Origin: an uncultured Poribacteria bacterium
GTDB lineage: Bacteria; Poribacteria; WGA-4E; WGA-3G
Assembly: GCA_958296135.2 (NCBI GenBank)
Contig: CATQHZ020000001.1
Coordinates: 928,001 to 992,000, forward strand
DNA length: 64,000 bases
Reading direction: 5' to 3'
The notes under the pieces were generated by a model that did no database searches, was not told the DNA's origin, and saw only the letters and a list, made by a program, of their open reading frames with translations. Positions 2,446 through 35,844 of this stretch are shown here, piece by piece (position 1 is the first letter of the stretch; every line of letters begins with the position of its first letter). A program made the position numbers and the translations under genes.

Positions 2446-3789
2446 ATGACCAGGGACTATAATCGAACGCTTTGCGCCAAGACGAAGGAATACAAAATCG
2501 CCGCGACGCTCGTGTTCGGTCTGTTCTGCATCACCATCGCAGTGCAGAACGGCACAGCACGCACCATTGATAGAATCATCGCCCACGTTAACGACGATGT
2601 TGTCACGCAGTGGGAATTGGACACTTTAGTGAAACAGCGTGCGATGGAGCTCCAGCATGTCTACCGCTTCAGCGCGCGTGAAGCACAGCAGGAGGCAGAA
2701 CAGCAACGCGTAGAACTCTTGGACCGGCTTATCCGGCAAATGCTCTTACTTGAGGCCGCGCTTACCTTGAAAATCATTGCTACTGACGTAGAGGTAGAGC
2801 AGTATATCACAGAGTTTAAGAACCGGTATCAGATTGAGACTGATGAAGAATTTCAGAAGCAGCTGAACCGGGAGGGCCTCACCCTCGTCGCGTTTCGGGA
2901 GCAATCGGAACGGAACCTGAAGTCTGAGAAACTGGTGATGGGCAGAATTGTCCCGCGTCTCCAGATTCGGGACAGTGATGTTCAGCAATTTTTTGAAGAG
3001 AATCGGGACCAGCTTCCAACAAAATCGGATAAGGTGCGGCTGCGGCATCTGTTTATCGCCTTCAAACCGATGAAGGCAGACCGGCAGGCCGCGCTGGAGC
3101 AGGTGAACGCTGCACGGGCGGCGATTGCGGCAGCGCCAGCCCAGTTTGAAACTATTGCCCAACGTTATACGCCGCCGCAGAACGCCGACTCGCAGGTAGG
3201 GAAGTTGATAGAAGCTAGTCATGAGGAGCTCAGCAGTTTTCCGGAGACTTTCCAGGCGGTGCTCGCGAACCTCAAGGCCGGCGAGATGAGCGAACCGATT
3301 GAGGCAAACGAGGGACTCTATGTTTTCCGAGTGGAGACGAAGACCGGGGAGCTGACAGGATTTCGGTATTTCATCGTTCCGCTTTCGCTGAGCGAGGCGG
3401 CTATCGAGGCTGCGCGCGAACGCATCGCTGAGCTCTTCCAGAAATTGGAGGCGGGTGAAGATTTCAACGCCCTTACCGCTGAACATTCCGATGATGTAGA
3501 CACGAAGGAGAACGGGGGAGACCTCGGGGTGCGGGCCCTCACGGAGCTGAATCCCAAGACACGGAACATCGTTGCGGCACTTGATACGGGAGCCTACAGT
3601 CAACCCGTTGAGACTTCTTCCGGCCTGCACATTTTCAAAGTTGACGAGCGGAATACGCCCGAACTGAGCGAGGCAGAGAGACTGCAGATTATCTCTATCC
3701 TGCGCCAACAGCGTTTTCAAGAAGAGTGGGATGCATATACCGACCGGCTCATGGAAAACGCTTACGTGAAAATTAAGTTGCATGAATAG
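2446..3789 (+). CDS. surA: SurA-like periplasmic chaperone/PPIase
   Basis: 'IDRIIAHVNDDVVT' SurA N-terminus; two PpiC domains ('FNALTAEHSDD...GGDLG', 'SQPVETSSGLHIFKV'). Confidence 0.85.
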   Translation: MTRDYNRTLCAKTKEYKIAATLVFGLFCITIAVQNGTARTIDRIIAHVNDDVVTQWELDTLVKQRAMELQHVYRFSAREAQQEAEQQRVELLDRLIRQMLLLEAALTLKIIATDVEVEQYITEFKNRYQIETDEEFQKQLNREGLTLVAFREQSERNLKSEKLVMGRIVPRLQIRDSDVQQFFEENRDQLPTKSDKVRLRHLFIAFKPMKADRQAALEQVNAARAAIAAAPAQFETIAQRYTPPQNADSQVGKLIEASHEELSSFPETFQAVLANLKAGEMSEPIEANEGLYVFRVETKTGELTGFRYFIVPLSLSEAAIEAARERIAELFQKLEAGEDFNALTAEHSDDVDTKENGGDLGVRALTELNPKTRNIVAALDTGAYSQPVETSSGLHIFKVDERNTPELSEAERLQIISILRQQRFQEEWDAYTDRLMENAYVKIKLHE

Positions 3790-6700: not shown

Positions 6701-7849
6701 GTGCCAACCTTGGAAAACACCAGTTTTGATTTGGACATTGAGCTCGGCAACTTCTACCGGCAGGTTTACAAGAGCACACTCGTCGGTGATGAGAGGGACG
6801 TGTTCCTTCAAACGATGGATCTCGGGTTCGACTTGCGTAAGCAATCAACGCTGCTGATTACGCCGCTGCGCGAACTGCTCCTAAACATGAATTTCAATAC
6901 GAATATGATATGGCACGACCAGGACCAGGAGAAAAACCGCAACATTGTGCGCGGTGTCTATAGTTTCCGAGGTTCTGCAACCAATACGCTCTTCCGCGTC
7001 TACAATATCAACTTTATCCCGCGCATGCGCAAACTGCGGCACGAGATGCAGTCGACGGTAACGTTTGATTATCAGCCGCCTGTGGATGAAAACAAGAACC
7101 TCTATCCGTTCGGTCCTAGCACTTATTTCTATGAACGAAAATCGCTCTCCTACAATTTCGACACGAATATTGAGATTAAGACGCAGCGGAGCCAATCGCC
7201 GCATCGCGTACTCCAGTTGCGGACGCAGTTGCGTGCGGATTTTACGGAGTTCGACCCGCTCTATAAGCGCAGGTATGAGCCGATTGAGAGCAATTTGACG
7301 TTCATTCCGTTGCCGAGTCGGAGTTTGAATGTGACGGTGCGCCTCACGCACGATCCGAACCCAGACCCGGATGATGATAAGACTTTCAAGATGGTAGGGC
7401 TTCGTTCCAACATCCGTTATACGCGTCAGAGTTGGAACGTGAGTATTGGGAGTTCGTTCAGCAAGCGGCTGACTTCTCGGCAAGCTTCGCGTTCAATTAC
7501 GGCGAGTGGGCGGTACCGTTTTAGCGAGAATCTTGATTTCGATATCAATCTCATCTATTATCCGATCGATGGGCAATTCTATTCGCAGCGGCTTAGCATC
7601 AACCGGAATTTGCACGATTGGAACTTGCGGATTTCGTGGAGTCGTGTGGGTATCAAGCGCGGCGAGCCGCCTTACAACAACGTCCGTCAAGACTTTACGT
7701 TCCAGATTAGTCTCATTCCGGAGCCGGCTGTCTCGATGGGTGTGGGCTACGATGCGACGACAGATACGTGGGGGCTTCGCACGTTGTCAGCGGGTTCGCC
7801 TTACAATGCCTTTGGCGTTGGGAATTCGTTAGGCCGTTCTTATTTCTAA
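3782..7849 (+). CDS. lptD: LPS-assembly protein LptD with a large parvulin-domain insertion
   Basis: OstA-like N-domain ('LRADHV','ASGNV','FNLETKKG','TLTTC','PLFYFP'); beta-strand-rich C-terminal barrel ending in F; PpiC motifs in the middle. Confidence 0.75.
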   Translation: MNRKSVPKLSKERHFFLCCALLSIAGLLVFPAVLLAQTAAEEAPPAAPEIEEKVLPDDGEKTPEAETPPEETESPDAGAEGTEAQQEKSPDGLDPEQMDPEPGIVIGDGDEMVMQDNLVQIHGNALIKYGDMILRADHVWADFNENLLRASGNVHLITGAEETFSDELIFNLETKKGIARNGFTYNDPWYFGGSDIFKIGDKKSYIRSATLTTCSLKYPHYYFSVSRVIVRVNEEMIAKNIVLRIGGFPLFYFPAIRRDLRKGKVAKIIVKVGTDSYQGPYVSIILPIARKRRYDGALLYDESARRGRGFGFEGKYRFNDTQFREIYIPIPPDATPAQRTKLEEKAKEIHERLEGEHDRYWLKQLFLPYEITADDVNRAEETAAELLMQLTEEGADFATLAQRNSDHETRYEGGDLGFIVRGERIEEKTPATSKTQNAPKEKTAPDASPPLDEAATPEGTPIDAAPETGAAPEAAESQDAEAETTQAPPAEKPKLDPILEEAAFELEEGEISSVLKTESAFHILKVERVLDVYGEREIQLRRIDIAIAASDETQQKLRETTDIIQARALEGESFERLAAAFAEVTLSEVNDGDGLPLSEMDASWRYSVRRLEEPGDITQRRPVSTPEGLYLFQLIEKEETPTFEVLAEELDAEWELFLAEVMSSTEEPKAGEQTSAAGASVPAEGASPESPETAEVSSDTPEPKSPEAEVPAESRPKDAPASSDEAVGEDASSDEAEDVDAEEPFTVYRKHGYRGRWEDPRAVASEAQSLYGGEFSKVIPTKKAFRLIKVDKKRAYRGDIYLYRADHYSFDRQSPSRIGRRWNMRWGHRQSLYTPWDSRREGRRPISFTGRTELRALTYKEELKLPGESTLNTFGILTYGAAFSALDEGDRDDNGNLRFSRQPTGDFTGRLEVRHIHDFTGEGTTSLQKLPQLTLNFSRMRFNGLPVFRTINSRLVTLSEKSATEKPILSLFTVPTLENTSFDLDIELGNFYRQVYKSTLVGDERDVFLQTMDLGFDLRKQSTLLITPLRELLLNMNFNTNMIWHDQDQEKNRNIVRGVYSFRGSATNTLFRVYNINFIPRMRKLRHEMQSTVTFDYQPPVDENKNLYPFGPSTYFYERKSLSYNFDTNIEIKTQRSQSPHRVLQLRTQLRADFTEFDPLYKRRYEPIESNLTFIPLPSRSLNVTVRLTHDPNPDPDDDKTFKMVGLRSNIRYTRQSWNVSIGSSFSKRLTSRQASRSITASGRYRFSENLDFDINLIYYPIDGQFYSQRLSINRNLHDWNLRISWSRVGIKRGEPPYNNVRQDFTFQISLIPEPAVSMGVGYDATTDTWGLRTLSAGSPYNAFGVGNSLGRSYF

Positions 7850-7978
7850 TAGGGAGATATTCGTGAGCACGGACTTAACTGCCATTGAAAGCCGCCGGTT
7901 AGAAGAATGCATTGCGGCGAATGTTGCAAAGATTTTAGAAAACGTCGTATCATAGACGAACCGAGTCATTCCGCAATG

Positions 7979-8100
7979 CCGTAGGGTGAGGGTCTGTCCC
8001 TCGCTATCGGGACTGCGGGGGACAGGCCCCCGCGCTACGGTAGGGGGAAATTGTCCTTTCTCGTAGGGCGAGGGCCTGGGGGTGGGTAACCGCCATGCCC
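7979..8100. repeat. Cluster of GTAG-type REP palindromes
   Basis: ccgtagggtgagggtctgtccctcgc, gcgggggacaggcccccgcgctacgg, cgtagggcgagggcc. Confidence 0.75.
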
Positions 8101-8150
8101 CAATTGCTCCGTGTACCGTAACGAAGATACCGATAGCAAGGAGTAACAGC

Positions 8151-8948
8151 ATGCAGACAAATCCATGGGGCATGACGCGCTTTGAGGATAAAGTTGCCTT
8201 GATAACCGGCGGTGCCTCCGGCATCGGACGCGCTACTGCAGACCGCTTGGCGGCCGAAGGCGCGCATGTCATCATCGCCGATAATAACGCAGCGATGGCA
8301 CATCGGGCAGTCGCCGACATTGAGAACGCTGGCGGCAAAGCCGTTTATATGGCAGTTGAACTCGCTGATGACACAGCCGTCACTGCTGTCGGGCAAGCCG
8401 TAGCCGAACAATTTCCTGCGCTCCATATCCTTGTGAACAACGCCGCGATTTTGCGAACCGGCAAAATCGAAGATGGCGCGTGGCTGCCAAATTGGGAACC
8501 CGAAACCGCCATCGGCCTCAGAGGATGGGTGCTGATGACGCAGGTGCTACTGCCCATGCTCAAGCGAGAGGGGGGTGCTATCGTCAATCTCTCATCGGAG
8601 GGCGGCTTCCTCGGTAGGCCCGGGCAGTGGGTATACGATACGATTAAAGCGGGGTTGGTCTCACTCACGAAGACGATGGCGTATGAATTCGTTGCATACG
8701 GTATCCGCGTTAACGCTGTCGCGCCGGGTTGGATAGTTACAGAGATGCACTTCGGCAACGCGCCAGACCCGGCCGCTCGGAAGAAGGAATTGGAGGAGTC
8801 CCCGATTAACTCCTGCATTATGAAACGCCGCGCCGGACCGGAGGAGGTGGCATCCGCCATTGCGTTCCTCCTCAGCGACGATGCCTCTTACATCACCGGG
8901 CAAACCATTCACGTTGATGGTGGGCGGATGGGGATGTCTGTGGGGTAA
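8151..8948 (+). CDS. SDR family NAD(P)-dependent oxidoreductase
   Basis: TGGASGIG, NNAA, YxxxK (YDTIK), 'IRVNAVAPG', 'VDGG'; start moved to ATG 8151 behind AAGGAG. Confidence 0.93.
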   Translation: MQTNPWGMTRFEDKVALITGGASGIGRATADRLAAEGAHVIIADNNAAMAHRAVADIENAGGKAVYMAVELADDTAVTAVGQAVAEQFPALHILVNNAAILRTGKIEDGAWLPNWEPETAIGLRGWVLMTQVLLPMLKREGGAIVNLSSEGGFLGRPGQWVYDTIKAGLVSLTKTMAYEFVAYGIRVNAVAPGWIVTEMHFGNAPDPAARKKELEESPINSCIMKRRAGPEEVASAIAFLLSDDASYITGQTIHVDGGRMGMSVG

Positions 8949-11851: not shown

Positions 11852-13033
11852 ATGAAAATAACCGAAATCCAAACCGCACTCACCGAATTAAAACTTGGAG
11901 CCTGGCTCTTATACGATTTTCGAGGGATGAACCCGATTGCGCAAAATGTCGCCGGGCTCACCGATGCACATATTACTCGCCGATGGTTCTGTCTCATTCC
12001 TGCGCGAGGCGAACCGAAGTGGCTTATTCATGCTATTGAGACATCGAATTTCGTTGATGTCCCAGGGTGCATCGCGTGCTACACCGGATGGCAAGAGCTG
12101 AATGAGCAGATGGCGGCACTGCTCGCCGATGTCCGCAGCGTTGCGATGGAGTATTCGCCTCACGCGGCGATTCCTTACATTTCGCGCGTGGATGCCGGCA
12201 CGTTGGAGTGGATTCGCTCGTTCGGCGTTGAGGTCCACACGTCTGCAGATTTGGCGCAGCGCGTTGAGGCACGTCTGACTGAAGCACAAGCCGAGGGACA
12301 CCAAGCGGCGGCGCGGTTAGTATTGACCGCGAAGGACGAGGCGTTTGCGTGGATTGGCGAGCGGCTCCGCGCTGGTAAGCCAATAACGGAATATGACGTG
12401 CAGCAGTTCATTCTCCAGCGGTTTGAAGCGATGGAATTAACGACAGACCATCCGCCGATTGTCGCCGTGAATGCGAAAAGCAGCGATGCGCATTATGCAC
12501 CCACCGCAACGCAAACGCAACCTATCAAAAAAGGCGATTTCATCTTGATCGATCTGTGGGCGAAGCAGAAGGTATCGGCCTCGGTCTTCGCGGACACAAC
12601 GTGGGTAGCCTATGCAGGCACGACGGTTCCCGAGCGGTTCGTTAAAATCTTTGAGATTGTCAAGGGAGCAAGGGACAGAGCGGTGGCGTTCATCCGTGAA
12701 AAATGGGAGGCAGACGAACCGATTTACGGCTACGCCGTTGATGACTGCACGCGTGCGTATATCGCAGAAAAAGGCTACGGAGAGTTCTTTATCCACCGCA
12801 CCGGGCATAACATCGGCACGGCTATCCACGGTAACGGCGTGAATTTGGATAATCTGGAGACGCGAGACGAACGCGTACTTATTTCGGGCATCTGTTTCTC
12901 CGTTGAGCCCGGTATCTACCTTACCGAGTTTGGCGTGCGGACAGAGATTGACGTTTTTTTAGCCGGTCCAGGGAGAGACGGCGTAAAAGTGACAACCGCT
13001 CCCGTTCAAAATCAGGTATTGCCGTTGCTGTGA
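11852..13033 (+). CDS. Xaa-Pro aminopeptidase (M24 family)
   Basis: 'DAHY', 'LIDLW', 'ADTTW', 'HRTGHNIG', 'SVEPGIY', 'GVRTEID'; start at ATG 11852. Confidence 0.9.
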   Translation: MKITEIQTALTELKLGAWLLYDFRGMNPIAQNVAGLTDAHITRRWFCLIPARGEPKWLIHAIETSNFVDVPGCIACYTGWQELNEQMAALLADVRSVAMEYSPHAAIPYISRVDAGTLEWIRSFGVEVHTSADLAQRVEARLTEAQAEGHQAAARLVLTAKDEAFAWIGERLRAGKPITEYDVQQFILQRFEAMELTTDHPPIVAVNAKSSDAHYAPTATQTQPIKKGDFILIDLWAKQKVSASVFADTTWVAYAGTTVPERFVKIFEIVKGARDRAVAFIREKWEADEPIYGYAVDDCTRAYIAEKGYGEFFIHRTGHNIGTAIHGNGVNLDNLETRDERVLISGICFSVEPGIYLTEFGVRTEIDVFLAGPGRDGVKVTTAPVQNQVLPLL

Positions 13034-13769
13034 TCTGGTAGTTTCGCTTCTTCAAGTCATTGAGGATGTGGGCGAGGTAAATCCGGGCGTTAAGCAGCCA
13101 CTGTTCTGCATAAGCGGCGGCGAGGATAGGGAGCGCGGTTGCCAAGCGCGGTGCGTCAAGCAGCCACTGTTCCGCGTAAGCGGCGAAGTCTGTCTCCACC
13201 AGTCCGACGCTGCCGAGGGTGTAGACGACGTAGCGTTTGTCGGCTCGCGCTTCCTGCCGGGGCGCGAGCGGTGTTTCAAGGGTGAGACGTTTCGTGCCAT
13301 CAATTTCAAAGACCCAGAAGAAGTAGTCTTCGTTATGTGCGAGGTATCCGATTTCCACGTCAAGCCGATGTTCTGTTTCGGTGGTGAGCGGGATTACCTC
13401 CATATCGCGTTTCACCAAAATGGGGTAGATGGCGGCCAAAAATACCTGCTCGAATCCGAGGGGCCGGTGCGCGTTGTTGAGGATGTCCAGCAGAATCTGT
13501 TGTTCTTCAAGTTGGTGAAGTTCTAAGCAGCTTTTCGCAAAGACTTCATCTCGGAGTGCGCGTATTTCGGCGGGCGCGCTTGCATCCAGCGGCTGGAGTT
13601 GCTGCATCAATTTGTGGATGCGCCGGCGTTTCGGTGAGATGCGCCAGAGCGTCCAATGCCACAACGCCTGCCACGTCTCCTTTTGTAGCAATTGCCCCAG
13701 GAAGGCTCGCGTTGGAATAAAAATGCGTTCAAATAGGTTATCAGATGCAGGTTTGCGTTGTTGATTCAT
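12921..13769 (-). CDS. Hypothetical protein with a short internal repeat
   Basis: 282-aa ORF with protein-like composition; AAYAEQWLL twice; 3' end overlaps the peptidase gene. Confidence 0.55.
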   Translation of the reverse strand: MNQQRKPASDNLFERIFIPTRAFLGQLLQKETWQALWHWTLWRISPKRRRIHKLMQQLQPLDASAPAEIRALRDEVFAKSCLELHQLEEQQILLDILNNAHRPLGFEQVFLAAIYPILVKRDMEVIPLTTETEHRLDVEIGYLAHNEDYFFWVFEIDGTKRLTLETPLAPRQEARADKRYVVYTLGSVGLVETDFAAYAEQWLLDAPRLATALPILAAAYAEQWLLNARIYLAHILNDLKKRNYQITATAIPDFERERLSLLRRLSLDRLKKRQSLSARQTR

Positions 13770-13844: not shown

Positions 13845-13929
13845 GCCGGAGTGGTGAAATCGGTAGACGCACTGGACTCAAAATCCAGCGGGCCCTAGGT
13901 CCATGTCGGTTCGAGTCCGACCTCCGGCA
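13845..13929 (+). tRNA. tRNA-Leu(CAA)
   Basis: Cloverleaf with long variable arm; anticodon arm ctgga-ctCAAaa-tccag; T-loop ggttcgagtcc. Confidence 0.95.
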
Positions 13930-17987: not shown

Positions 17988-19049
17988 ATGAATTTCACAG
18001 CAAATAACGTTCACGCAGGGATAACCATTTCCTCTACAGCTGCAGCTCGCGGTTGTGTGAGACAGATAAATGTCAACGGCAAGGACTTGCATTTGACGAT
18101 TCCGGCTGGCATTAAATCTGGACAAACCTTGTGCCTGAAGGGCCGGGGTTACTCCATCGACGGCGGAGAGCCGGGGGATTTATACGTTAAAATATCCATT
18201 CAGCCCCCTTTGACATCTCCGGAACAGAAGCGTGTGGAGTCTCAAGGTGAAGTGGAAAATGCAGTCAAGAGTTATCTATCTGGTTTGTTTCCATCTCCGT
18301 TTTCTGTTAAGCGGCAATATCCGCTTCGCATCGGTGCTAACCCTTCCAACGCCGACGTTGTGCTTTGTGACGGTGAAGGAAACCTTGCTGCTGTCGCAGT
18401 ATGCAAACGAAATGGGTTCATAGGTAACGGAATTACGCAGTTGCATGCCTACCTCGGCACAACTCATGCGCGATTCGGCATTTTTGCCAATAGCACGAGA
18501 CCCGAGTTGTGGACTTTTCACGAAAATCTGGGGCGGAATCAGTTCAAAGAGGTTCCTCGTGCTCGCTTTGAAAGTGCTGTTTTTGCGGAGCAAGAACGCC
18601 AATCGGCTCTTGAACAGCTTCAACAAAGGATTAACCTGCTAAACAAGCAAAAATCCGAGTTGGAACACGAGTCTGAGTGGCAGCAACAGCCCTCCGTGCT
18701 AGAACGGCTTAAACAGCAGACTGAGCAGTTAGAAGCCGCGAAATCCGAACTTGAAAAAGTTTTTGGCGTGAAGGCGTCGGAAGCCCTGAAATGGCTCAAG
18801 AATCTTCTTGAGGACGACGTTATCCCCGCAAGGGAAACGAGCGATGGCGATATCTACAGAACGCTGACGATTAGTTCTGCCTGCGCGAAACGGGGAGGGC
18901 GCGCAGTGATGTACGTTGGCGGAAAACAGTTGACCGTTAAAGTTCCTGCCGGCACGAAAGATGGGCAAACCTTGCGAATCCGAGGACAAGGTTACCCGAC
19001 AGTTGGCGGTGGACAGGGAGATTTGTATCTGAAAATCTCTGTCTCGTAA
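17988..19049 (+). CDS. DnaJ C-terminal domain - HsdR_N-like nuclease fold - coiled coil - DnaJ C-terminal domain protein
   Basis: 'IPAGIKSGQTLCLKGRG..GDLYVKI' and 'VPAGTKDGQTLRIRGQG..GDLYLKI' flank 'ADVVL..VCK..GITQLHAYL..FGIFAN'. Confidence 0.75.
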   Translation: MNFTANNVHAGITISSTAAARGCVRQINVNGKDLHLTIPAGIKSGQTLCLKGRGYSIDGGEPGDLYVKISIQPPLTSPEQKRVESQGEVENAVKSYLSGLFPSPFSVKRQYPLRIGANPSNADVVLCDGEGNLAAVAVCKRNGFIGNGITQLHAYLGTTHARFGIFANSTRPELWTFHENLGRNQFKEVPRARFESAVFAEQERQSALEQLQQRINLLNKQKSELEHESEWQQQPSVLERLKQQTEQLEAAKSELEKVFGVKASEALKWLKNLLEDDVIPARETSDGDIYRTLTISSACAKRGGRAVMYVGGKQLTVKVPAGTKDGQTLRIRGQGYPTVGGGQGDLYLKISVS

Positions 19050-22308: not shown

Positions 22309-22521
22309 GAGGGACAGTGGACATCTCTGCAGCGAGGCTGCAGAGATGATAGCGTTAAAGGTAGCATGTTTACGCGGGGCGACACACGCACATTTTCTGT
22401 AGACGTGTCCGTATTGACGCGGGGCGACACACGCACGTTTGCTGTAGACGTGTCCGTGTTGACGCGGGGCGACACACGCACGTTTGCTGTAGACGTGTCC
22501 GTGACGGCCCTCGCGCTACGG
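22309..22521 (+). repeat. REP-loop insertion element with three tandem 45-bp units
   Basis: gagggaca[gtggacatctctgcagcgaggctgcagagatg...cgtgac]ggccctcgcgctacgg; units start at 22372, 22417, 22462. Confidence 0.9.
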
Positions 22522-23454
22522 CACTGAAAGGAAAGTGATGAACGCGTCCAGATCGGCGAAAAGCGCGTCGGCTAAATCGCCTACGCGCTTGGCGTTCTTC
22601 TCCGTTTCTTCATAATTGAGTTTCACGGAGTAGATATGCGCGAAGACGTGGCGAAAGCCTAAAAGGTTCTCTAATAGCCCAAGGGTTTCTTGAGAGACGA
22701 GCGGCGGACGTTCCTCGCGTGCTTCTGCCATTCGCTTCAGCAACGCCTTATGCCATTCTGCGCCTTCAGGCATATTCGCATCAAAATAGCGCGCGATTTC
22801 CCGGAAAATGTTCTCCATCCTCATATAGATTTCATAGAGGTATCTGGCAATCTCGATCTCTGCGCCGTGCCTGTATCGCGCAGGTGCTTCTTCGATGTGT
22901 TCTAACGCTTCTCCAATCTGTGCCGCGACGCGTTCTATTTCCGCGTGTTCCGCGGCGATGCGCCGTATCAGTTTTCGGCTATTCACTTCGTAAACGTCTC
23001 CTGCTTCACGTTGAGCGTCTGTCCTATAAATAGGCGCGCCGAACTCTGCGCCTTTTTCAATAGGAACGGCTTGACTTTGAACGCTCTCGCGAAACAGCCC
23101 TTCGCAGCTCTCAAAATCAACCAGATCTACTTTGAACCAACGGCTAATATGCTTGGCTTCTACGACTGCCTTGAGGTATTTGTCCTCCGGTATTCCCCAG
23201 ACAGCGATGTCAATATCCGACCATTTTGAGAACCAGTCCTGTTCCGCTAGCGAACCGAAGATGGCGACGCGCGTGGCCCCGAATTCCTCATAAAGCATTG
23301 CCGCCACGCGGTGTGCTGTCTGCCATGCGCGCTGCAATAACGCCTCATCTACTTTCCTATTGCGGAAGTGTTGGTTGAGACGTTCGCGATATGCAGCGAG
23401 TTCTGCTGGTGGTAAGTCTTTTGCCATGTGATGTGGGGCTGTTGGTTGATGCAT
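22516..23454 (-). CDS. Fused minimal nucleotidyltransferase (MNT) - HEPN RNase
   Basis: FGS-x11-DID MNT motif; HEPN RX4HXY (RHVFAHIY); AGGAGG RBS. Confidence 0.85.
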   Translation of the reverse strand: MHQPTAPHHMAKDLPPAELAAYRERLNQHFRNRKVDEALLQRAWQTAHRVAAMLYEEFGATRVAIFGSLAEQDWFSKWSDIDIAVWGIPEDKYLKAVVEAKHISRWFKVDLVDFESCEGLFRESVQSQAVPIEKGAEFGAPIYRTDAQREAGDVYEVNSRKLIRRIAAEHAEIERVAAQIGEALEHIEEAPARYRHGAEIEIARYLYEIYMRMENIFREIARYFDANMPEGAEWHKALLKRMAEAREERPPLVSQETLGLLENLLGFRHVFAHIYSVKLNYEETEKNAKRVGDLADALFADLDAFITFLSVP

Positions 23455-23487
23455 GTTAGAAACCTCCTTTGCCTCGTTTCGCGAGTG

Positions 23488-24534
23488 TCACTGGGAGATG
23501 TTCGCCATTTCTAATATTCGATCGATTAACGGGCGGTAAGTTGAGTTATGCAAATGTTCTTTATACCATTCCGCATAAGTTTCTTCTGCTAGGTGTTCTT
23601 GAATCAACCGGTTTTCCTCCAGCAACGTCCATAGGTTGTGGGTAGCGCGGTTGCAAAACCCATGCATACGGTTAGCTTTCAATCCGTCTGTTCCATACTT
23701 TTGACAAGCGGGACAGGGACATTTCCTTAATTTCTCCCATTCTTGTGGAGATGGTTCGCGCACCCTCCAATTACCGAACTGCGCCACAGTCCGATCTCCA
23801 ATTCCCGGTAATTGCACGAGTCCCCGAGCCGCCCGAACGCGCCATCCGGCTGAATCGACTGAGTCTACTCCTAACAACGCGGCTAAGTGCAATGTCGCTG
23901 TTCCGCCGATGCCAAAGACGTGCAATTGCCGATTTTCCAATTTGACACGAACCTGACGCACTTTGTCAAGGACATCTCCGTATGACATAGCCTTCGGTGC
24001 ACGCAGAAGGTTGGGGACAATCCCACCAATGGCACAGACAGTTTTTTTTCGGAGCTGTTCATTTGCTTCAAACTGGCGAAGATATTCGTCCAAGCAACGA
24101 CTGATATGTAAAATCGGGACGTACCCATCGTGACAATAGGCCTGGTTGACACGCATCGTCCGTTGGAGACAATCAAGTTGTTCATCGTCACTCATACGCG
24201 GTGTCGGGATATAGTCTTGAGGAATTGCGTACCAGTCAGGACGGGCCTGCTCCACGAATTCTTCATAATCTTGACGTGGCACTTCCTCTCCAGACCGTGA
24301 AAATCTGAATGCCCCGTTATCCAAGTAAATTTTGACATCCGCCGGAACATTAAGACAGGTGTGCAGCCCTTCCTCCATGGCTTGATAGCGGCGAGCAGGA
24401 CTTCGATGGAAATCCGCGTAGGAGACCATTACTGCTCGCAAATGAGGTAAATGATAATCGGAATCAGCCTCCCACACCTCCGGTTTGATATTGACGAGGT
24501 TCAGGCCCGCGACGATTTTCATCTTTAATTCCAC
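23488..24534 (-). CDS. tRNA-guanine transglycosylase-like (DpdA/TGT family) protein
   Basis: LDNGAF (cf. DSGGF), HVFG, DSVDSAGW, Zn site CPCPAC...HN; start is GTG 24534 or ATG 24522. Confidence 0.8.
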   Translation of the reverse strand: MELKMKIVAGLNLVNIKPEVWEADSDYHLPHLRAVMVSYADFHRSPARRYQAMEEGLHTCLNVPADVKIYLDNGAFRFSRSGEEVPRQDYEEFVEQARPDWYAIPQDYIPTPRMSDDEQLDCLQRTMRVNQAYCHDGYVPILHISRCLDEYLRQFEANEQLRKKTVCAIGGIVPNLLRAPKAMSYGDVLDKVRQVRVKLENRQLHVFGIGGTATLHLAALLGVDSVDSAGWRVRAARGLVQLPGIGDRTVAQFGNWRVREPSPQEWEKLRKCPCPACQKYGTDGLKANRMHGFCNRATHNLWTLLEENRLIQEHLAEETYAEWYKEHLHNSTYRPLIDRILEMANISQ

Positions 24535-26033
24535 CGTGCCTTTCGTCGAAAACGTGCTGTAATCTTCTGTCCAATCTCAGTGGCAATCTGTTTTCCTGCT
24601 TGTTTGGAGAGGTCGTGTGCCAGTTGCGTCACGGTAGGTATCAGGTACCTTACAGGTTCAACTGCCATGAAGGAGTGATCCCTATCAATCATCAGACCGC
24701 AGGTCTGCAAAGAGGATAGAATCTTCTGCACGATTTCTTGCGGCTTGCCAAGAGAATCAGTGTAGAAAAACTCATAGCGCGGAAGTTGCTGTTGAGGGTT
24801 TTTGGAATGCCCGATGAAGAACATGTAGACGTGAGCAATTTCACACAACTTTTGGTACCGGGCAATATCTACTTCTGGATACTGATCTTGATAGGTGCTG
24901 AAGTAAGTGTCAAGGTTATCAAGATCTGCTCTAACGTTCAAATTCGCTCTTGTCGTGAATGAACGACGGATAAGGCAGGTAGTCACAGTTTGTTCCAAGT
25001 TGCCGCCTACGAACGACGGTAACGCCAACAGCATACTCATGGCTTGCCCGTCGCTGAGGGCGTAATTACCAAAATGCCAATTCGGATCAACATGTTTCGC
25101 GATGTACCAATCAACGACTGCACTGTAGACGTTCAGTTCGACTTTCTTGGAAACACCGCAGTAAATCACATTAATGGCCCCTGAAAGAATCAGGCAATTG
25201 AGCAGTTCAAGGATTGCTTCACGGGTGAAATCGCCCCGCGGGTTATCAGTTTCAGCGAAGTTGTGTAGGTAGGCATCCTGGGGGAACAGACTTCCATCTC
25301 TGAAGATGATGTCGGGTTTCTGTCTGTTTGCCTTCAGCAAGTAGTTAAGGTCAAATTTATACTGCCCAACATCCATTGCTGAAGTTAAACACCTTTCATA
25401 ATCTTCACGTTCAAGTTCATCTTGATAGGATGGATCAATCAACATCCACCGCAGTAATTCCTCATCGGGTCTTGGGTTAAATATCTTGTCAAATTTTACA
25501 CGACCGTCCTGCTCCATGCGTAGTACCCCCGCCGCGTTGTTGAGGACGAACGGAGCATGACGCTTGAAGAAACGCCCCGGAAAAGGAACGGCACTATGAT
25601 GCTGACTTACATCAGAAGCCCCGATGATAGGAACACGTCTGTCCCAAATAGTCTCGTCAACCGTGATTGGGTTGAGGAAGTACTCACCAACGATGTGAGC
25701 ATCAAGGTGTTGTTTCACAGCTTCCTCATCAAGATTGACCCGCCATCGCGCTTCGCTTTCGGTTGGCGGCTTAATCGTGACGTGTTTCTTGCTCATCCCA
25801 AATCCGCGAATTGCAACCCTTCTTAGTAAGCTGGCTAGCACTTCTGACCTGGATGAGTTTTGCTCAATCTGATGTTTGAGGTCGATAATAAAGTCACGGT
25901 AAAGTTCACGTGGATTGATTTGTTGCAAGGCTTCATGGGCTTTCTGAAGCGTCGTATCCCAATCCTTCTCAATTTCCACGGATCGCTCCATGTAAAGGGC
26001 TGTTGTTGCGACTGGATCGTGGCTACGCATCAT
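24525..26033 (-). CDS. nurA: NurA-family 5'-3' nuclease
   Basis: 'GASDVS', 'RDGSL', 'GVSK', 'P..TQLAHDLS' match NurA motifs; AAGGAGG RBS; overlaps the herA stop. Confidence 0.72.
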   Translation of the reverse strand: MMRSHDPVATTALYMERSVEIEKDWDTTLQKAHEALQQINPRELYRDFIIDLKHQIEQNSSRSEVLASLLRRVAIRGFGMSKKHVTIKPPTESEARWRVNLDEEAVKQHLDAHIVGEYFLNPITVDETIWDRRVPIIGASDVSQHHSAVPFPGRFFKRHAPFVLNNAAGVLRMEQDGRVKFDKIFNPRPDEELLRWMLIDPSYQDELEREDYERCLTSAMDVGQYKFDLNYLLKANRQKPDIIFRDGSLFPQDAYLHNFAETDNPRGDFTREAILELLNCLILSGAINVIYCGVSKKVELNVYSAVVDWYIAKHVDPNWHFGNYALSDGQAMSMLLALPSFVGGNLEQTVTTCLIRRSFTTRANLNVRADLDNLDTYFSTYQDQYPEVDIARYQKLCEIAHVYMFFIGHSKNPQQQLPRYEFFYTDSLGKPQEIVQKILSSLQTCGLMIDRDHSFMAVEPVRYLIPTVTQLAHDLSKQAGKQIATEIGQKITARFRRKARWN

Positions 26034-27558
26034 CGGTTGGTCCTCCTTGTTTCGATTTGTTGATTTCGTCAAGCCATTTCTCTTCCATTTCCTCGAAAAT
26101 TTTCGGTGTTTGGCCACCCTCGGAATCTTTCGTTTCCCGTTCTCGGATTTTTACGGGAATGGCGTGTCTCACACTCTCATAAGTTCCAGAAAGCAGACAC
26201 GTTCCTTGAGGCATCTTCGGCAAAGCATTCAACATCTCCGCTGATGCGTCCGATCGCACACCACGAATGGCATCCAACTGATCCGGTTCCAACGCAAAAA
26301 CTAACCTTGTGTTACATTGGCGAATTGTTCGCTTGTCAATGTCAACCGGACTTTGTGTCATGAGAACCATAGCGATTCCATGATGCCGCCCGATACGAAC
26401 CCCTTCTCGGATAATCTGTTTGCAGGCACTGCCTTCTCCCTCGGGAACAAATAAATGTGCTTCGTCTATCACGGCTACGTAAGGAGGAATATGGCTGTGA
26501 AGCCGCAGCGTCTGAAGTTCACGCAAAACTGCTATCGCAATGATTTGCAGTTGTGTCGTCGTCAAACGTTTACAGTTGATCGCCATGCAGGGATACATGT
26601 TCTGCCGCCAGGCTGCATTGTCGATGCCATCGCCGAAGATTTTGTTTTCCTTAAGAGCACCTGTTCGAGCAACAGCCATTTTGAGACTGCGCTTGTCTGT
26701 TTGCAATTGTTCTTTAGCATCTTCCATTTGATTTAACAAATCATCAATTGAAAATTTAGCAAAATCTTCGGATGCAGATTTGCTCTGCAATCCGCGAAAT
26801 GCCAAACTTACAATATCTTTCTGCAAATCAGTCATTCCGGATGGAAGGAGATCTAATAATTCAGACTCCGCCAAAGTGGAGATTCGGATGCTGAAATCAA
26901 CGCCCGGTTCGACAACTTTCCCGCCTAGTTTTTTAACTAACGCAGAATATTCATCCTGTGTGTCAATAAAGACAACGGGCAAGTGATGTTTCACAAGTTC
27001 TTCGGCAATGACACCCATTGCATAACTCTTCCCACTCCCCGTTGTCCCGCAGAGAAAGAGATGCCGCTGAATGGCCTCACGCTTGAGAATAATTTCGGTT
27101 GTGGCCCCTGCAACCGTTTCGCCAATTCTCAGGCCTTGTGTTGTGGTTTTAACCAGACCGAGTGTTTGCACAATTTCGTCATCGTTAGCAATAAACACCT
27201 CTGCCCCGGATTGGGGCAGCGTTTGCGGTGGTTGCATAGTCTGCCCGATGATCTCGTCAATCAATTCGGCTTCAGCGAGACGGTAGATAGTTGTGCTATC
27301 TTCTTCGGCCGGATAGGTTCTCTGCATCTCCATCTTATCCCGAACATTGATGTCTTCAGCACCTTCGTTGGGATTATGCTCATAGGCACTATGGATTCGA
27401 CCTATGAGCGCACTTTTGGTGTTGTTCCGGAATGCAGGAACCCGGACAAGGGTTCCCGGTTTGACATCTTGCCCGGTCTTCAATTTAATCCGGACCTTTT
27501 CAAACGTTGGAGTTTCCTCATCCGAAATAACTGTGCCAATTGAATCTGTATTGGACAT
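26023..27558 (-). CDS. herA: HerA/FtsK-family ATPase with N-terminal HAS barrel
   Basis: GTTGSGKS, 'VIDEAH', 'GRHHG', 'TQSP'; N-terminal beta barrel 'IGTV..GTLV..IGRI'. Confidence 0.88.
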   Translation of the reverse strand: MSNTDSIGTVISDEETPTFEKVRIKLKTGQDVKPGTLVRVPAFRNNTKSALIGRIHSAYEHNPNEGAEDINVRDKMEMQRTYPAEEDSTTIYRLAEAELIDEIIGQTMQPPQTLPQSGAEVFIANDDEIVQTLGLVKTTTQGLRIGETVAGATTEIILKREAIQRHLFLCGTTGSGKSYAMGVIAEELVKHHLPVVFIDTQDEYSALVKKLGGKVVEPGVDFSIRISTLAESELLDLLPSGMTDLQKDIVSLAFRGLQSKSASEDFAKFSIDDLLNQMEDAKEQLQTDKRSLKMAVARTGALKENKIFGDGIDNAAWRQNMYPCMAINCKRLTTTQLQIIAIAVLRELQTLRLHSHIPPYVAVIDEAHLFVPEGEGSACKQIIREGVRIGRHHGIAMVLMTQSPVDIDKRTIRQCNTRLVFALEPDQLDAIRGVRSDASAEMLNALPKMPQGTCLLSGTYESVRHAIPVKIRERETKDSEGGQTPKIFEEMEEKWLDEINKSKQGGPTDDA

Positions 27559-27889
27559 TATGACCTTCCTATCATGCAGCACATTGACCTAATGAACGAA
27601 CTCTTAGGAATTGCTGTGCTGCATCGCTAATTTCCGCCCTGCAAGTTGACTGCCTCCGTATCTGAGTTGCAGGTATTGACGCGCGTCAAAACTACGCGTA
27701 ATGCTTGACTAAACCCGATGCGATGTGCGCGGCTACGCGCCTAAGCGGGGCCGGGGGCCGAAACGTCGCCGACCGAAGTCCACGAACCCGCGTCTTTTGC
27801 ATGCACAACGCACTTAACCTAATGACATCACAACGCTACCAAACAGACGCTGTTGGCAGTCGGCGTTGAATGCCGTTGCTGATACGAAA

Positions 27890-27918
27890 AGTTTAACACA
27901 AAATCGTTCTGATGTCAA
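27890..27918 (-). promoter_or_regulatory. Sigma70 promoter upstream of the herA operon
   Basis: Minus strand TTGACA-17 bp-TAAACT. Confidence 0.65.
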
Positions 27919-28004
27919 ACTTTTTTTGTGCGAAATAGGATGTGTGAACCCTCCTTCATTAATTCTAACACCTTTCGTTCGTTTTTGCAAATTAAAATTC
28001 GCAA

Positions 28005-29929: not shown

Positions 29930-29956
29930 ATATACAACATAGCAGATGTCAGGTTT

Positions 29957-30042
29957 GCCGGGATGCTGGAATTTGGTAGACAGGCTAGATTCAGGTTCTA
30001 GTGTGCATTATGCGCGTAAGGGTTCGAGTCCCTTTCCCGGCA
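29957..30042 (+). tRNA. tRNA-Leu(CAG)
   Basis: Anticodon arm ctaga-ttCAGgt-tctag; long variable arm; acceptor gccggga/tcccggc. Confidence 0.95.
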
Positions 30043-30214
30043 TTTTGAAATCGTCACCTAGTCCGTATCGCGATGGTTTCGGGAGCGATCGCGAGGGACA
30101 GGCCCTCGCGCTACGGTTTGTGGGCGTTCTTCGGTTCGGTGAGGGGCATGTCCGTCGTGCTATGGTTTGCGGGCGTTCTTCGGTTCGGTGAAGACTAGGG
30201 CTTTGCGCAACTAA

Positions 30215-32061: not shown

Positions 32062-32260
32062 GGTTTGTTTCTGTTCCCTGAAATCGAGACATATCTGGAT
32101 AAATCCGTGCGAATCCGTCCGATTTCTGAAGTTCCTGCTTCATCACGAGGTGCCTCCGAATGAGGGCTTACCTTCGCTCCACAGGCGTTTAAGGTATTAC
32201 CTCTCGGATACGAGAGGTAATACCCATGCCTCTCCGTCAAACCAGCGGCGAGGGTTCTAA
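32055..32260 (-). ncRNA. TnpB omegaRNA (scaffold overlapping the tnpB 3' end; guide = flank 32070-32055; boundaries approximate)
   Basis: Position at the right end; blocks aaacgcctgtggag...gatgaagcaggaa conserved with the sister element. Confidence 0.65.
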
Positions 32261-33480
32261 ATTTATAGCAGCGTTCCGGTCGCGGTCCATCCGCAACCCA
32301 CAGTCACTGCAGTGATACTCACGTTCCGATAACGTGAGCGTATCCTTCTTATATCCGCAAGCACTGCACGTCTTCGAGGAAGCGAACCACTGAGATGCTT
32401 CCTCAATATGCACGCCAAGTGCCTGTGCCTTCGTCTTTAACTTGGAGAGGAATCCACCCAGTGCAGCGTCCGACAATGCTTTCGCAAGCCGACGGTTCTT
32501 GAGCATACCTTTGACGTTCAGAGACTCAATGCCTATCGCCGACACGCCCTGCACAATCGCCGTGCTGGCTTTGTGATGCGCGTCTTCGCGGATGCAAGCG
32601 ATACGATAGTGGATACGGACAACACGTTCCTTCTTTTTCCACCAATTCTGACTACGATAGACTGAACGACTCAGGGCGCGCTGCGCACGGCAAAGTTGAC
32701 GTTGATAACGGGCCAAGGCGCGTGGGTTTCCAAAGGTGCGTCCATCAGAGCAAGTGGCGAGGGTGTTGATACCCACATCGATGCCCACGGGAGGCAAACC
32801 ACGTAAATCGGGCTTGGAAACCATTGACAGGGTTTCGACGAGCACCGATGCAAACCAACGATGCCCTCGCTTCTTAATCACTACGCGCATCACGTCGCCT
32901 TTGAACCGCAATGCTTCAAACGTCCGCACCCAGCCTATCTTCGGCAGGAAAAGCCGTTTACCTTCACATTTTATCGCATTGCGTTTATTGTCGACGCGAA
33001 ACGATTGTTTACCCGACTTCCGCTTATACTTTGGAAACTTGGCAAGTTTGTTTTTCCACCGTTGACACGCCGTGTTAAAATCATCGAAGGCATGTGATGC
33101 TACGCGGGCGATGAGCGGTTTCTGCCAGTCAAACTGCGTATCTTTTACGGCATTAAACCGAGTGCGTAGCGTGCGCCCATTCCGCCATTCGCCTTCAGCT
33201 AACCCTGCTTTGAAATCGGACAAAGCAGCGTTATAGACAAATCGGCGGAATCCCGCGTGCTGATGAAATTGTTGAACCTGTGCCGTTGTCGGGCGCAGTG
33301 CAATATTGTGCGTTTTCATGAGGTGTTCCCGTATGCCGTGTTTGCCTTTATCACAAGGTGGGCAATGCGCTGGCGGTGATATCATTGCCCAACACGGTAA
33401 CACTTATGTTGCCGTTTATCACGATAAATCCGCTTTTACCACGATGTGTCTCGATTTTCGGGGGCTAGGAACGTCCTCCT
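32071..33480 (-). mobile_element. TnpB-only IS607-like element (no transposase gene)
   Basis: AG dinucleotide at both ends; subterminal inverted repeat gaaatcgagacatatc (32080) / gatgtgtctcgattttc (33443); ends shared with 16752..17476. Confidence 0.75.
32237..33319 (-). CDS. tnpB: RNA-guided endonuclease TnpB
   Basis: RuvC GIDVG / IESLNV / DRDRNAAINL; Zn finger CSACG...CSDCG; 'RFVYN'. Confidence 0.95.
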   Translation of the reverse strand: MKTHNIALRPTTAQVQQFHQHAGFRRFVYNAALSDFKAGLAEGEWRNGRTLRTRFNAVKDTQFDWQKPLIARVASHAFDDFNTACQRWKNKLAKFPKYKRKSGKQSFRVDNKRNAIKCEGKRLFLPKIGWVRTFEALRFKGDVMRVVIKKRGHRWFASVLVETLSMVSKPDLRGLPPVGIDVGINTLATCSDGRTFGNPRALARYQRQLCRAQRALSRSVYRSQNWWKKKERVVRIHYRIACIREDAHHKASTAIVQGVSAIGIESLNVKGMLKNRRLAKALSDAALGGFLSKLKTKAQALGVHIEEASQWFASSKTCSACGYKKDTLTLSEREYHCSDCGLRMDRDRNAAINLEPSPLV

Positions 33481-34898: not shown

Positions 34899-34971
34899 TA
34901 TTAACGGTCTTCACGTTTAGGGGTGGTAGCGGCTGTAAAAAGTTTTGCTGCCTTTAACTCACAACGAATTT

Positions 34972-35046
34972 CGGGGCGTAGCGCAGCCCGGCTAGCGCGT
35001 CTGCTTTGGGAGCAGAAGGTCGGAGGTTCAAATCCTCTCGCCCCGA
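34972..35046 (+). tRNA. tRNA-Pro(TGG)
   Basis: tctgc-ttTGGga-gcaga; acceptor cggggcg/cgccccg. Confidence 0.95.
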
Positions 35047-35063
35047 TCTGCCATACAAAATGC

Positions 35064-35137
35064 GCGCCTATAGCTCAATCGGATAGAGCAACGGATTTCT
35101 AATCCGTAGGTTGCAGGTTCGATTCCTGCTAGGCGTG
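35064..35137 (+). tRNA. tRNA-Arg(TCT)
   Basis: acgga-ttTCTaa-tccgt. Confidence 0.95.
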
Positions 35138-35191
35138 TTAGGGAAGGCGTAGTTTGCGCGGGACAGGCGTTCGCGCTGCGATAAATCTTGC

Positions 35192-35264
35192 GGTGGATGT
35201 AGCTCAGGGGTAGAGCACTTGACTGTGGATCAAGTGGGCGTGGGTTCAAATCCCATCATCCACC
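35192..35264 (+). tRNA. tRNA-His(GTG)
   Basis: cttga-ctGTGga-tcaag; G-1 encoded, C discriminator. Confidence 0.95.
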
Positions 35265-35434
35265 TTTCATCGGCTTGTAGTGCGGGATACCCTCCTGTCC
35301 TGCACTACGGGGGGCATTCTAAGAGAGGATGGGCGTTAAGACGGGCCTGTCCGCCCGACGGTTTGCGGTTCTGCTTAGCGTGGTTACTGTTTCAATCGCG
35401 ATGCTGTTCTGTCGGGTTCAAAGCGAGAAAAGGT

Positions 35435-35507
35435 GCGCCGTTAGCTCAATTGGCAGAGCATCTGACTCTTAATCAGGCGGTTGAAGGTTCGATTCCTTCA
35501 CGGCGCA
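35435..35507 (+). tRNA. tRNA-Lys(CTT)
   Basis: tctga-ctCTTaa-tcagg. Confidence 0.95.
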
Positions 35508-35564
35508 ATTTTTCTGTATGGCCCGAAGGGGGCTGCGTGAGTTTTTGAGCGCGCGAGCCCTTTT

Positions 35565-35649
35565 GGGCGGGTGCTGGAATTGGTAGACAGGATAGACTTA
35601 GGATCTATTGGGGTTACGCCTCGTGAGGGTTCAAGTCCCTCCTCGCCCA
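35565..35649 (+). tRNA. tRNA-Leu(TAG)
   Basis: ataga-ctTAGga-tctat; long variable arm. Confidence 0.95.
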
Positions 35650-35844
35650 TACTGAAACCCGTGGGTTATGGCTTTCTAGTGTTCGGCATGCGTGATGCGG
35701 TATCAAGGATGCAATAGCATTTTCAGGATGGTTATCGCGCTTCGGTGCCGCCGAGAAAACTCTACCTACTACGCGATAAAATCGGAGCGCATTCCAAAGT
35801 TTTTGGAGAAGTAACTATTCCGATAAAGCACCGCGAGGTGCTTC

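Follow-up and report, generated by a model that had tools for sequence, protein, structure and literature searches.

The 64,000-nucleotide window analysed here, from an uncultured Poribacteria bacterium (GenBank assembly GCA_958296135.2, contig CATQHZ020000001.1, positions 928,001 to 992,000), carries on its minus strand three adjacent genes for a HerA ATPase, a NurA-like nuclease and a protein of the tRNA-guanine transglycosylase (TGT) superfamily. Comparison with related loci revealed a larger and widespread cassette, in which a DpdC-family gene of the DUF6884 type usually accompanies the other three, and which is well supported as a conserved genetic unit; the trio of the window is a reduced form of it. 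The cassette would represent a modification-linked motor-nuclease system and is apparently unnamed. Tentatively, and at a little less than an even chance by our own estimate, we read it as a module that modifies DNA with 7-deazaguanine in the manner of Dpd and is coupled to HerA-NurA as a restriction motor, a design analogous to that of TdpABC. What was observed directly, and is described below, is the gene content, the folds, the conservation of catalytic residues and of linkage, and an insertion/deletion polymorphism.

Three co-directional minus-strand open reading frames (ORFs; 26023..27582, 24525..26117 and 23488..24534) occupy positions 23488-27582 of the window. Likely gene starts at 27558, 26033 and 24522 were chosen by comparison with relatives, giving the following features:

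26023..27558 (longest ORF from 27582), minus strand: herA, FtsK/HerA-superfamily ATPase of 511 amino acids, likely ATG start
24525..26033 (longest ORF from 26117), minus strand: nurA-like nuclease of type c6, 502 amino acids, likely ATG start
23488..24522 (longest ORF from 24534), minus strand: tgt-like gene, stand-alone TGT-superfamily catalytic domain with zinc site, 344 amino acids, likely ATG start

With these starts, herA and nurA overlap by 11 nucleotides, as they do in the related loci L022-L024, and the tgt-like ATG lies 2 nucleotides past the nurA stop, in agreement with the tight coupling that an earlier note on this DNA had described.

Of 176 genomes of the phylum, 13 carry a member of this TGT family, which in two of the 13 is weak or fragmentary; neither of two other genomes of the same genus has one. 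Databases held 1499 relatives at E<=0.001, the best 120 of the 1499 being 62-92% identical, and a library of representatives at 50% identity gave 501 matches at E<=0.001, 278 at E<=1e-10 and 55 at E<=1e-30. Among metagenome contigs, a scan based on alignments yielded 126 relatives, from which 80 loci were kept, and viral contigs added one locus. The neighbours in these 81 loci were classed by profiles built from the phylum loci; the gene directly upstream of the TGT was HerA in 45, the c6 type of NurA in 12, the DUF6884 gene c0A in 10 and none of these in four, and there was no room upstream in 10 of the 81. The four-gene cassette (DpdC-family DUF6884, NurA, HerA, TGT) was present in 26 of 32 informative loci, that is, those with at least 5.2 kb upstream of the TGT, and the following arrangements were seen:

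c0A-NurA(c4)-HerA-TGT: 21 of 32 loci
c0A-HerA-NurA(c6)-TGT: 4 of 32 loci
All four genes in a divergent arrangement: 1 of 32 loci
Trio without c0A: 2 of 32 loci (L117 with the architecture of the window, L099 with the other NurA type)
c0A-TGT only: 2 of 32 loci
TGT alone: 2 of 32 loci

The same gene adjacency in dozens of independent loci is beyond chance. The trio is a real, conserved and mobile unit, yet the earlier note, in describing it as the system, did not cover the whole one. Since a DpdC-family gene is part of the cassette in 26 of the 32 informative loci, the absence of dpdC is a peculiarity of the window copy. Across all loci the TGT sequences share 54-92% identity. In seven of 12 phylum loci the cassette lies between DUF6884 paralogues beside secDF and a sigma-54 activator. 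This site is empty in the genome of the window (L036, G000:C1:4298000-4317000), where secD, secF, two DUF6884 genes of the separate clade c0B and the activator remain, and the trio is carried at a new site.

The insertion can be read directly from G066, a genome of the same genus in which the flanking genes, an MNT-HepT fusion and a TPR gene, lie 428 bp apart and the island is absent. Homology between the window and G066 ends at 23454 and restarts at 27958, so the difference is a clean 4503-bp indel, and relative to G066 we call the window copy a fresh one:

23455..27957, no strand: inserted island, comprising the trio and a 399-nucleotide upstream leader, delimited by the G066 comparison and the guanine-cytosine (GC) content

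Its GC content of 0.48, against 0.543 and 0.533 in the flanks, agrees with the AT-richness reported before, and the island is a discrete, AT-richer inserted block of 4.5 kb. A DUF6884 match of the c0A type is present nowhere in the window, and among the 10 flanking ORFs scanned there is no Mre11/Rad50, ParB-like, DUF6884 or que gene, which fits the earlier remark that mre11/rad50, dpdB/C and que genes are not adjacent.

The first gene of the trio is, judged by its sequence, unambiguously a HerA. It matches Pfam DUF87 at 3.5e-21 (76.7 bits against a cut-off of 23.2), with further matches to AAA_10 and HerA_C, and the PADLOC HerA model at 1.9e-30, and its best solved relative is HerA of S. solfataricus (4d2i, E 2e-13). 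Against the NCBIfam equivalog for anti-phage HerA it scored 51.7, and the cut-off of 800 was not reached. The Walker A motif GTTGSGKS (171-178), the VIDEAH motif (363-368) and R391 do not vary among 21 aligned HerAs of both types, and orthologues of 69-73% identity adjoin the c6 type of NurA in L020, L022, L023 and L024.

The product of the middle gene is far more divergent. It stays below the cut-off of Pfam NurA PF09376 (15.4 bits, E 0.013, cut-off 21), has no NCBIfam or PADLOC match, and its family profile found no NurA among the PDB sequences, where insignificant TrmD matches (E about 0.08) were all that appeared; sequence similarity to TdpB was likewise not detected in that profile search. 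The AlphaFold model (pLDDT 71.9, pTM 0.75) has S. solfataricus NurA 2ygk as its best fold match (Foldseek E 1.3e-6), with a VIA-align Z of 17.8 and a root-mean-square deviation of 4.2 A over 278 aligned residues. The next ranks are taken by the NurA proteins of T. kodakarensis, P. furiosus and D. radiodurans and by chain G of TdpAB, with Z between 10.6 and 13.1 (12.0 and 11.1 for TdpAB chain G). Ranks 1-11 consist of NurA entries, TdpAB chain G and TM1739, followed by Argonaute and EndoV at Z of 10.1 or less, and all 30 of 30 ESM-Atlas feature matches are NurA sets. D141, D246-G-S-L (246-249), D308, H409, D450 and H453 are invariant in 16 sequences and are candidates for the acidic residues and the histidine of the metal site. 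The model further displays a helical N-terminal extension of about 115 residues. On the strength of the model we call the middle gene a putative NurA-fold nuclease of a sequence-divergent branch. A predicted complex of the NurA-like protein with the TGT scored 0.00, which is evidence neither way.

The third protein matches Pfam PF01702 at 3.3e-16 (59.7 bits, cut-off 26.3), and D72-N-G, H205xFG, D227-S, C272/C274/C277 and H299 are invariant in 24 sequences. In each of the three proteins the family-invariant residues are present, in keeping with the intact motifs noted earlier. A profile search retrieved the archaeal enzyme arcTGT 1iq8 at E 3.3e-12 with catalytic and zinc residues aligned, and the motifs line up with VDSGSF, DLFDSASY, CSCPVC and HNLW of P. 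horikoshii arcTGT. All NCBIfam scores are below their cut-offs: 62 bits for arcTGT (TIGR00432, cut-off 350), 23.4 for DpdA (NF041059, cut-off 200), 16.6 for Tgt (TIGR00430, cut-off 306.75) and 39 for tgt_general. The PADLOC DpdA model matches at 2.9e-6, over 64 residues only. The structural model (pLDDT 82.2) gave Z of 24.9 for arcTGT 1iq8, 20.6 for Tgt and QTRT2, 19.2 for DpdA 7ui4 and 14.0 for Cap10. The protein has 344 amino acids against 582, the C-terminal domains by which arcTGT binds tRNA are missing from it, and the alignment spans the catalytic part of 1iq8 only. A canonical housekeeping tgt is found elsewhere in the genome (G000:C1:4111780-4112850, 532 bits to PF01702). The window gene is a non-housekeeping paralogue of the TGT superfamily. 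With regard to the label "TGT/DpdA-like" given to it before, it sits nearer to arcTGT than to DpdA. This placement is based on curated hidden Markov model scores and structural Z scores. Ten distant relatives sampled at 27-41% identity also scored best, though far below the cut-off, with the arcTGT model, and none of the 10 was a DpdA equivalog.

The fourth gene of the full cassette, c0A, matches Pfam DUF6884 at 1e-8 to 1e-13 and, in PADLOC, DpdC weakly at 1.7e-4 and PDC-M57A at 2e-9. Its CSxxK and ILSAxxG motifs retain the CxxxK and LSAxxG motifs described for DUF6884 (PMC11701544), and c0A is by these features assigned to the DpdC family. DpdC is described once as a DUF6884 protein (PMC12235509) and once as a DUF328 protein (PMC12839542). 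In the locus L022 of genome G158, a 163-residue GIY-YIG protein (12855-13346, minus strand) was observed in the place of c0A upstream of herA.

Other DUF6884 genes of the window's genome form the separate clade c0B and lie beside secDF with or without a cassette. The genome further encodes two QueC, QueD-like and QueF genes in addition to the separate canonical tgt, its QueC and QueD being homologues from the preQ0 pathway. A second deazaguanine-related set was seen on the 143,886-bp contig C2 of the same genome, at 69058-69774, 77523-77897, 96840-97004 and 99042-99683, with two PTPS/QueD-like domains, a DUF6884 gene of the c0B clade, a weak QueF-like match and the second QueC. The same genome also carries a fusion of TGT and DUF5591, of 643 amino acids, directly after an HKD(PLD)+SNF2 helicase of 1100 amino acids, at the following place:

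L038 = G000:C1:2710000-2725000, ORFs 3453-6755 and 6822-8753 (locus coordinates): HKD-SNF2 and TGT+DUF5591 locus

The helicase matches PADLOC C3a139 at 9.6e-80 and is DrmD-like, a protein of 814 amino acids and of no known family is present as well, and the fusion itself has no PADLOC match. A second defence locus of the deazaguanine type may thus be present in the genome, at L038. The fusion points to a functional link of TGT domains with a DpdC/ArcS-type domain.

Two non-homologous NurA types, each with its own HerA type, swap repeatedly beside one orthologous TGT. No sequence relation between NurA types c4 and c6 could be detected (hhalign probability 0.05), and between their HerA partners the identity is about 30%. 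On a tree of 89 near-full-length TGT sequences, out of 93 sources, at least 12 architecture switches were counted among 60 labelled rows; the TGTs of the phylum together with L040 form one clade (99*), inside which type a and type b interleave. The genome of L024 carries both NurA/HerA pairs in tandem. A third partner module, of six genes, consists of a 218-residue protein, a CapP-like M78 peptidase, a 352-residue protein, a HerA-like ATPase, an SbcD-like phosphoesterase and an SbcC/LmuB-like protein. On the mobilizable plasmid6 of Aulosira laxa (L121, AP018313.1, 248-8887) this module lies ahead of the TGT, and in eight or more loci from metagenomes (L098, L075, L100, L057, L069, L055, L110 and L104) it flanks the TGT. 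Its M78 protein matches CapP at 3.7e-19 and its SMC ATPase LmuB at 1.8e-29; the HerA-like ATPase matches DUF87 at only 3.9e-4, and the 352-residue protein is without family.

Chemistry and machinery of the kind proposed here are known from several sources. Together with DpdB, DpdA inserts preQ0 into DNA, and DpdC converts this preQ0 to an amide on the DNA (PMC10164549). HerA-NurA of T. kodakarensis is a 6:2 complex that digests both strands of double-stranded DNA, and a role in defence was raised by its authors (PMC12977600). In tdpABC, a single modifying gene goes with TdpAB, and tdpC alone makes the mark (PMC12914056). Because of this Dpd chemistry, HerA-NurA digestion and tdpABC pairing, we infer a marking module with a HerA-NurA motor, in which DNA would be the substrate and preQ0 the base, DNA without the mark would be restricted, and the proteins might be physically coupled. 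In the DNA of its own cell, the TGT-like enzyme would replace guanine by preQ0, a 7-deazaguanine base, and in full cassettes the DUF6884/DpdC-like enzyme would process the inserted preQ0 further. For the window copy, without a DpdC-like gene, the mark might stay preQ0, or DUF6884 paralogues elsewhere in the genome might act. A HerA hexamer with a NurA dimer would form an ATP-driven translocase-nuclease that destroys unmarked DNA, much as is reported of TdpAB, a HerA/NurA-like pair, with phosphorothioate marks, and HerA may replace the ParB-like DpdB in giving ATPase help to the TGT. It is the linkage of DpdC-like and TGT genes that makes us favour marking. We also count for it the swapping of the motors, the DpdC-family nature of c0A, the TGT+DUF5591 fusion, mobility, the likeness to TdpAB chain G, the invariant TGT residues, the missing tRNA-binding domains and the Que genes.

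Several observations weigh against this marking-restriction reading. The TGT is nearer to arcTGT than to DpdA, both by hidden Markov model score and by structure, and the preference for DNA over tRNA or protein as substrate derives from the neighbouring genes only. Nine phylum genomes carry the c4 type of NurA with its HerA, and in two of these the TGT is not intact: at E<=1e-20 none is found anywhere in G120, and the TGT of G152 is gutted, with residues 2-72 and 289-342 left. This loss would be lethal in a classical pair and thus argues against strict restriction-modification addiction. The window copy is without the DpdC-like gene, the proteins, with the TGT identities given above, are unusually conserved for arms-race genes, and PADLOC 2.0 offers no system name. 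The cassette flanks, scanned through the representatives of 150 of the 228 clusters that 287 flank ORFs from 36 loci form, and without a background rate, are mostly housekeeping, with few, scattered defence matches (restriction-modification, GajB-like, DRT-like, AriA and mad2/3/8). A tblastn search found the TGT in none of 50,697 phage records, and a single copy is known from 72,556 plasmid records.

Some of these points would suit a module for DNA repair or maintenance, in which HerA-NurA, or HerA-like/SbcD/SbcC, resects breaks, and TGT and DUF6884 handle damaged guanines or abasic sites; we consider this rather unlikely. HerA and NurA are closest to the archaeal end-resection pair, and bacterial NurA-HerA takes part in recombination in D. 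radiodurans (PMC12977600 and PMC9960219). SbcD/SbcC-like genes and an IrrE/M78 peptidase accompany the cassette in at least nine loci, a company that resembles the archaeal herA-mre11-rad50-nurA repair operons. The match of the M78 protein, however, is CapP, which regulates defence operons, and that of the SbcC-like protein is LmuB. YfjM, a DUF6884 member, has been reported among the proteins that bind abasic sites and RNA-base lesions, and YaaA is known as an oxidative-stress protein (PMC11701544). High sequence conservation, the single clade of phylum TGTs, the shared secDF/sigma-54-activator site and the retention of NurA-HerA without TGT in two genomes are likewise what a repair role would explain. 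It sits poorly with the patchy distribution across the phylum and the genus, the fresh indel at a new site, the occurrence of the cassette on a plasmid and the repeated swaps of motor type, such swaps being more typical of defence modules. We also know of no TGT-family enzyme that repairs DNA, which we count against a repair role. Distinctly unlikely is the narrower, non-immune form of DNA maintenance in which TGT and the DpdC-like protein would perform base-exchange repair of damaged guanines, coupled to HerA-NurA or HerA-like/SbcCD, with an IrrE/CapP-like damage switch in some loci.

The loss of the TGT in G120 and G152 fits a repair role or a modification-dependent sensor better than a strict restriction-modification pair. 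In a type IV-like defence of the latter kind, TGT, with or without DUF6884, would recognise or excise 7-deazaguanine or other unusual guanines in invading DNA, HerA-NurA would load at the covalent intermediates, abasic sites or nicks left behind and degrade it, and the host would be unmarked, so that nothing attacks self DNA once the TGT is gone. The linkage evidence is the same as for marking of self DNA, phages with 7-deazaguanine DNA exist (PMC6884629 and PMC10516641), and a DUF6884 member was reported to bind abasic lesions (PMC11701544). Still, we judge it unlikely: the full set of transglycosylase residues and the zinc site are invariant, which fits base exchange over mere binding, and a DpdC-family enzyme acting on preQ0 already in DNA makes better sense on self DNA. 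Moreover, in 10 of the 81 loci c0A lies directly upstream of the TGT without an adjacent HerA or NurA of the cassette type, and such c0A-TGT pairs resemble a stand-alone modification module, although several of these loci have the alternative HerA-like/SbcCD module nearby. It is very unlikely that the TGT acts off DNA altogether, modifying a protein (as Cap10 does the CBASS cyclase CdnD), tRNA or another RNA and thereby priming or regulating HerA-NurA. Cap10, whose entry is titled 'Cap10-CdnD complex containing NDG modification', is indeed one of five TGT-superfamily representatives topping the structural search, and the nearest solved relative of the window TGT is a tRNA enzyme. The Z for Cap10 is nevertheless far below those for arcTGT, Tgt and DpdA (14.0 against 19-25), neither a CD-NTase nor a QueC-like gene is among the 10 flanking ORFs, relatives have as partner gene one of the DpdC family, which acts on DNA, and the domains with which arcTGT binds tRNA are missing. 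A protein-modifying role of the Cap10 kind thus has weak support. Finally, the trio might no longer function and be a remnant of the four-gene cassette that is being lost, given the missing DpdC-like gene and the decay in relatives, with the TGT broken in one genome and absent from another. We hold this, too, to be very unlikely, as three full-length ORFs keep every family-invariant residue and the 11-nucleotide overlap of the family, and the trio without c0A is seen again in L117 and, in combination with the other NurA type, in L099.

Around the island, the following features were recorded:

22516-23454, minus strand: MNT-type nucleotidyltransferase and HepT-like fusion (Pfam HepT-like_2 9.9e-27; PADLOC PDC-S09 2.3e-08)
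27890..27918, minus strand: promoter-like site TTGACA-17-TAAACT (with TG) in the island leader, 10 of 12 consensus positions, weak

The MNT-HepT gene starts 33 nucleotides after the tgt stop with its own AAGGAGG and has 88% DNA identity in G066. It was rejected as a fourth operon member, being conserved beside the empty site there, and because it is kept in G066, where the island is absent, we regard it as backbone and not as part of the system. Promoter-like sites in the region numbered five against 6.2 expected from shuffling, the terminator scan was likewise not above expectation, and Rfam gave no match in the island. At a distance of 4 kb from the island there is an IS605 OrfB/TnpB-like gene (window 32237-33403, minus strand), and a homologue of it adjoins the gutted TGT of G152 (L029, 6089-7330). 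The window ORF 17988-19049 (plus strand) combines a match to the DnaJ C-terminal domain (2.3e-22) with a weak match to HSDR_N_2 (8.7e-4). Five tRNA genes (Pro, Arg, His, Lys, Leu) form a cluster at window 34971-35650 (plus strand), and single tRNAs lie at 29956-30043 and 13845-13929 (both plus strand); none of the tRNAs in the window abuts the island. Just after tRNA-Leu(cag), at about 30070-30130, a dispersed short repeat of about 35 nucleotides was seen, many dispersed and clustered copies of which, at 90-100% identity, are present in G066 and G065 of the same genus.

If the marking-restriction reading is true, 7-deazaguanine marking of DNA would extend beyond the large dpdA-K islands and phages to a compact, widespread cassette, and a new TGT clade would be coupled to a HerA-NurA motor-nuclease. 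Bacterial HerA-NurA, whose role outside Deinococcus is unclear so far, would gain a defined job. A system of three or four genes would also be at hand for asking how the access of a base-exchange enzyme to duplex DNA is aided by a hexameric translocase. The two unrelated NurA/HerA pairs and the SbcCD-type module beside an orthologous TGT amount to a natural experiment in effector modularity.

The earlier note knew of no named system with this content, and none has come to light. PADLOC 2.0 names no system for the NurA-like protein or the TGT, and we found no description of a HerA-NurA-TGT or DUF6884-NurA-HerA-TGT cassette in the literature, supplementary locus tables not being covered. The combination of HerA, NurA and DpdA had no literature match, the matches for NurA with transglycosylase were irrelevant by title, and none of those for HerA, transglycosylase and 7-deazaguanine, mostly judged by title or abstract, described the window cassette. 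PDC-M57 had no literature match, and the main text of PMC10853773 contains no NurA, TGT, YaaA or deazaguanine.

Among the described systems, Dpd (dpdA-K, the 7-deazaguanine restriction-modification system of Salmonella Montevideo and others) likewise combines a TGT-superfamily with a DpdC-family enzyme, and in the relatives of the window the TGT and DpdC-family genes bracket a set of ATPase and nuclease. The window TGT, however, is not a DpdA equivalog, as its scores and Z values given above show, motor and nuclease of the cassette are HerA and NurA, and neither a ParB-like DpdB, DpdC or the DpdD-K helicase or PLD set nor que genes are adjacent. Dpd islands without dpdC or without restriction genes exist (PMC12235509), in parallel to the trio without c0A and to the c0A-TGT pairs. 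TdpABC, the phosphorothioate system of thermophiles (PDB 8wet and 8wfd, 'TdpAB'), joins a translocase and a NurA-like nuclease with one DNA-modifying enzyme. TdpA is HerA-like, and TdpAB is the restriction part of TdpABC. Chain G of TdpAB matches the NurA-like model in structure, yet TdpC places sulfur in the backbone, unlike the base exchange expected of the window TGT. The HerA-NurA end-resection complex of archaea and Deinococcus provides the best solved relatives of both proteins (4d2i, 2ygk), with the genes adjacent and overlapping here. It differs from the window pair, which is without mre11/rad50, has a NurA below the Pfam threshold with an N-terminal extension of about 115 residues, and is linked to TGT, usually also to a DpdC-like gene, accessory and mobile. 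The SIR2-HerA and DUF4297-HerA anti-phage systems couple HerA to an effector, as in the window, where HerA matches the PADLOC HerA model but the effector is NurA and a base-exchange enzyme is added. In type IV CBASS with Cap9/Cap10, a defence operon likewise includes an accessory protein that is TGT-like, namely Cap10, a structural relative (Z 14.0); Cap10 is more distant and modifies a protein, and the window flanks hold no cyclase or QueC-like gene. BRC (BREX-related capture; PMC12839542) has seven genes including PglZ, DUF6079/BrxC-like, STAND NTPase, DUF4007 and GNAT, with no NurA or DpdC, and none of these five is found among the 10 flanking ORFs of the window. Its HerA/FtsK translocase and TGT, proposed there to mark DNA with 7-deazaguanine, are the one published HerA/FtsK and TGT association that we found, and BRC is thus the nearest described system.

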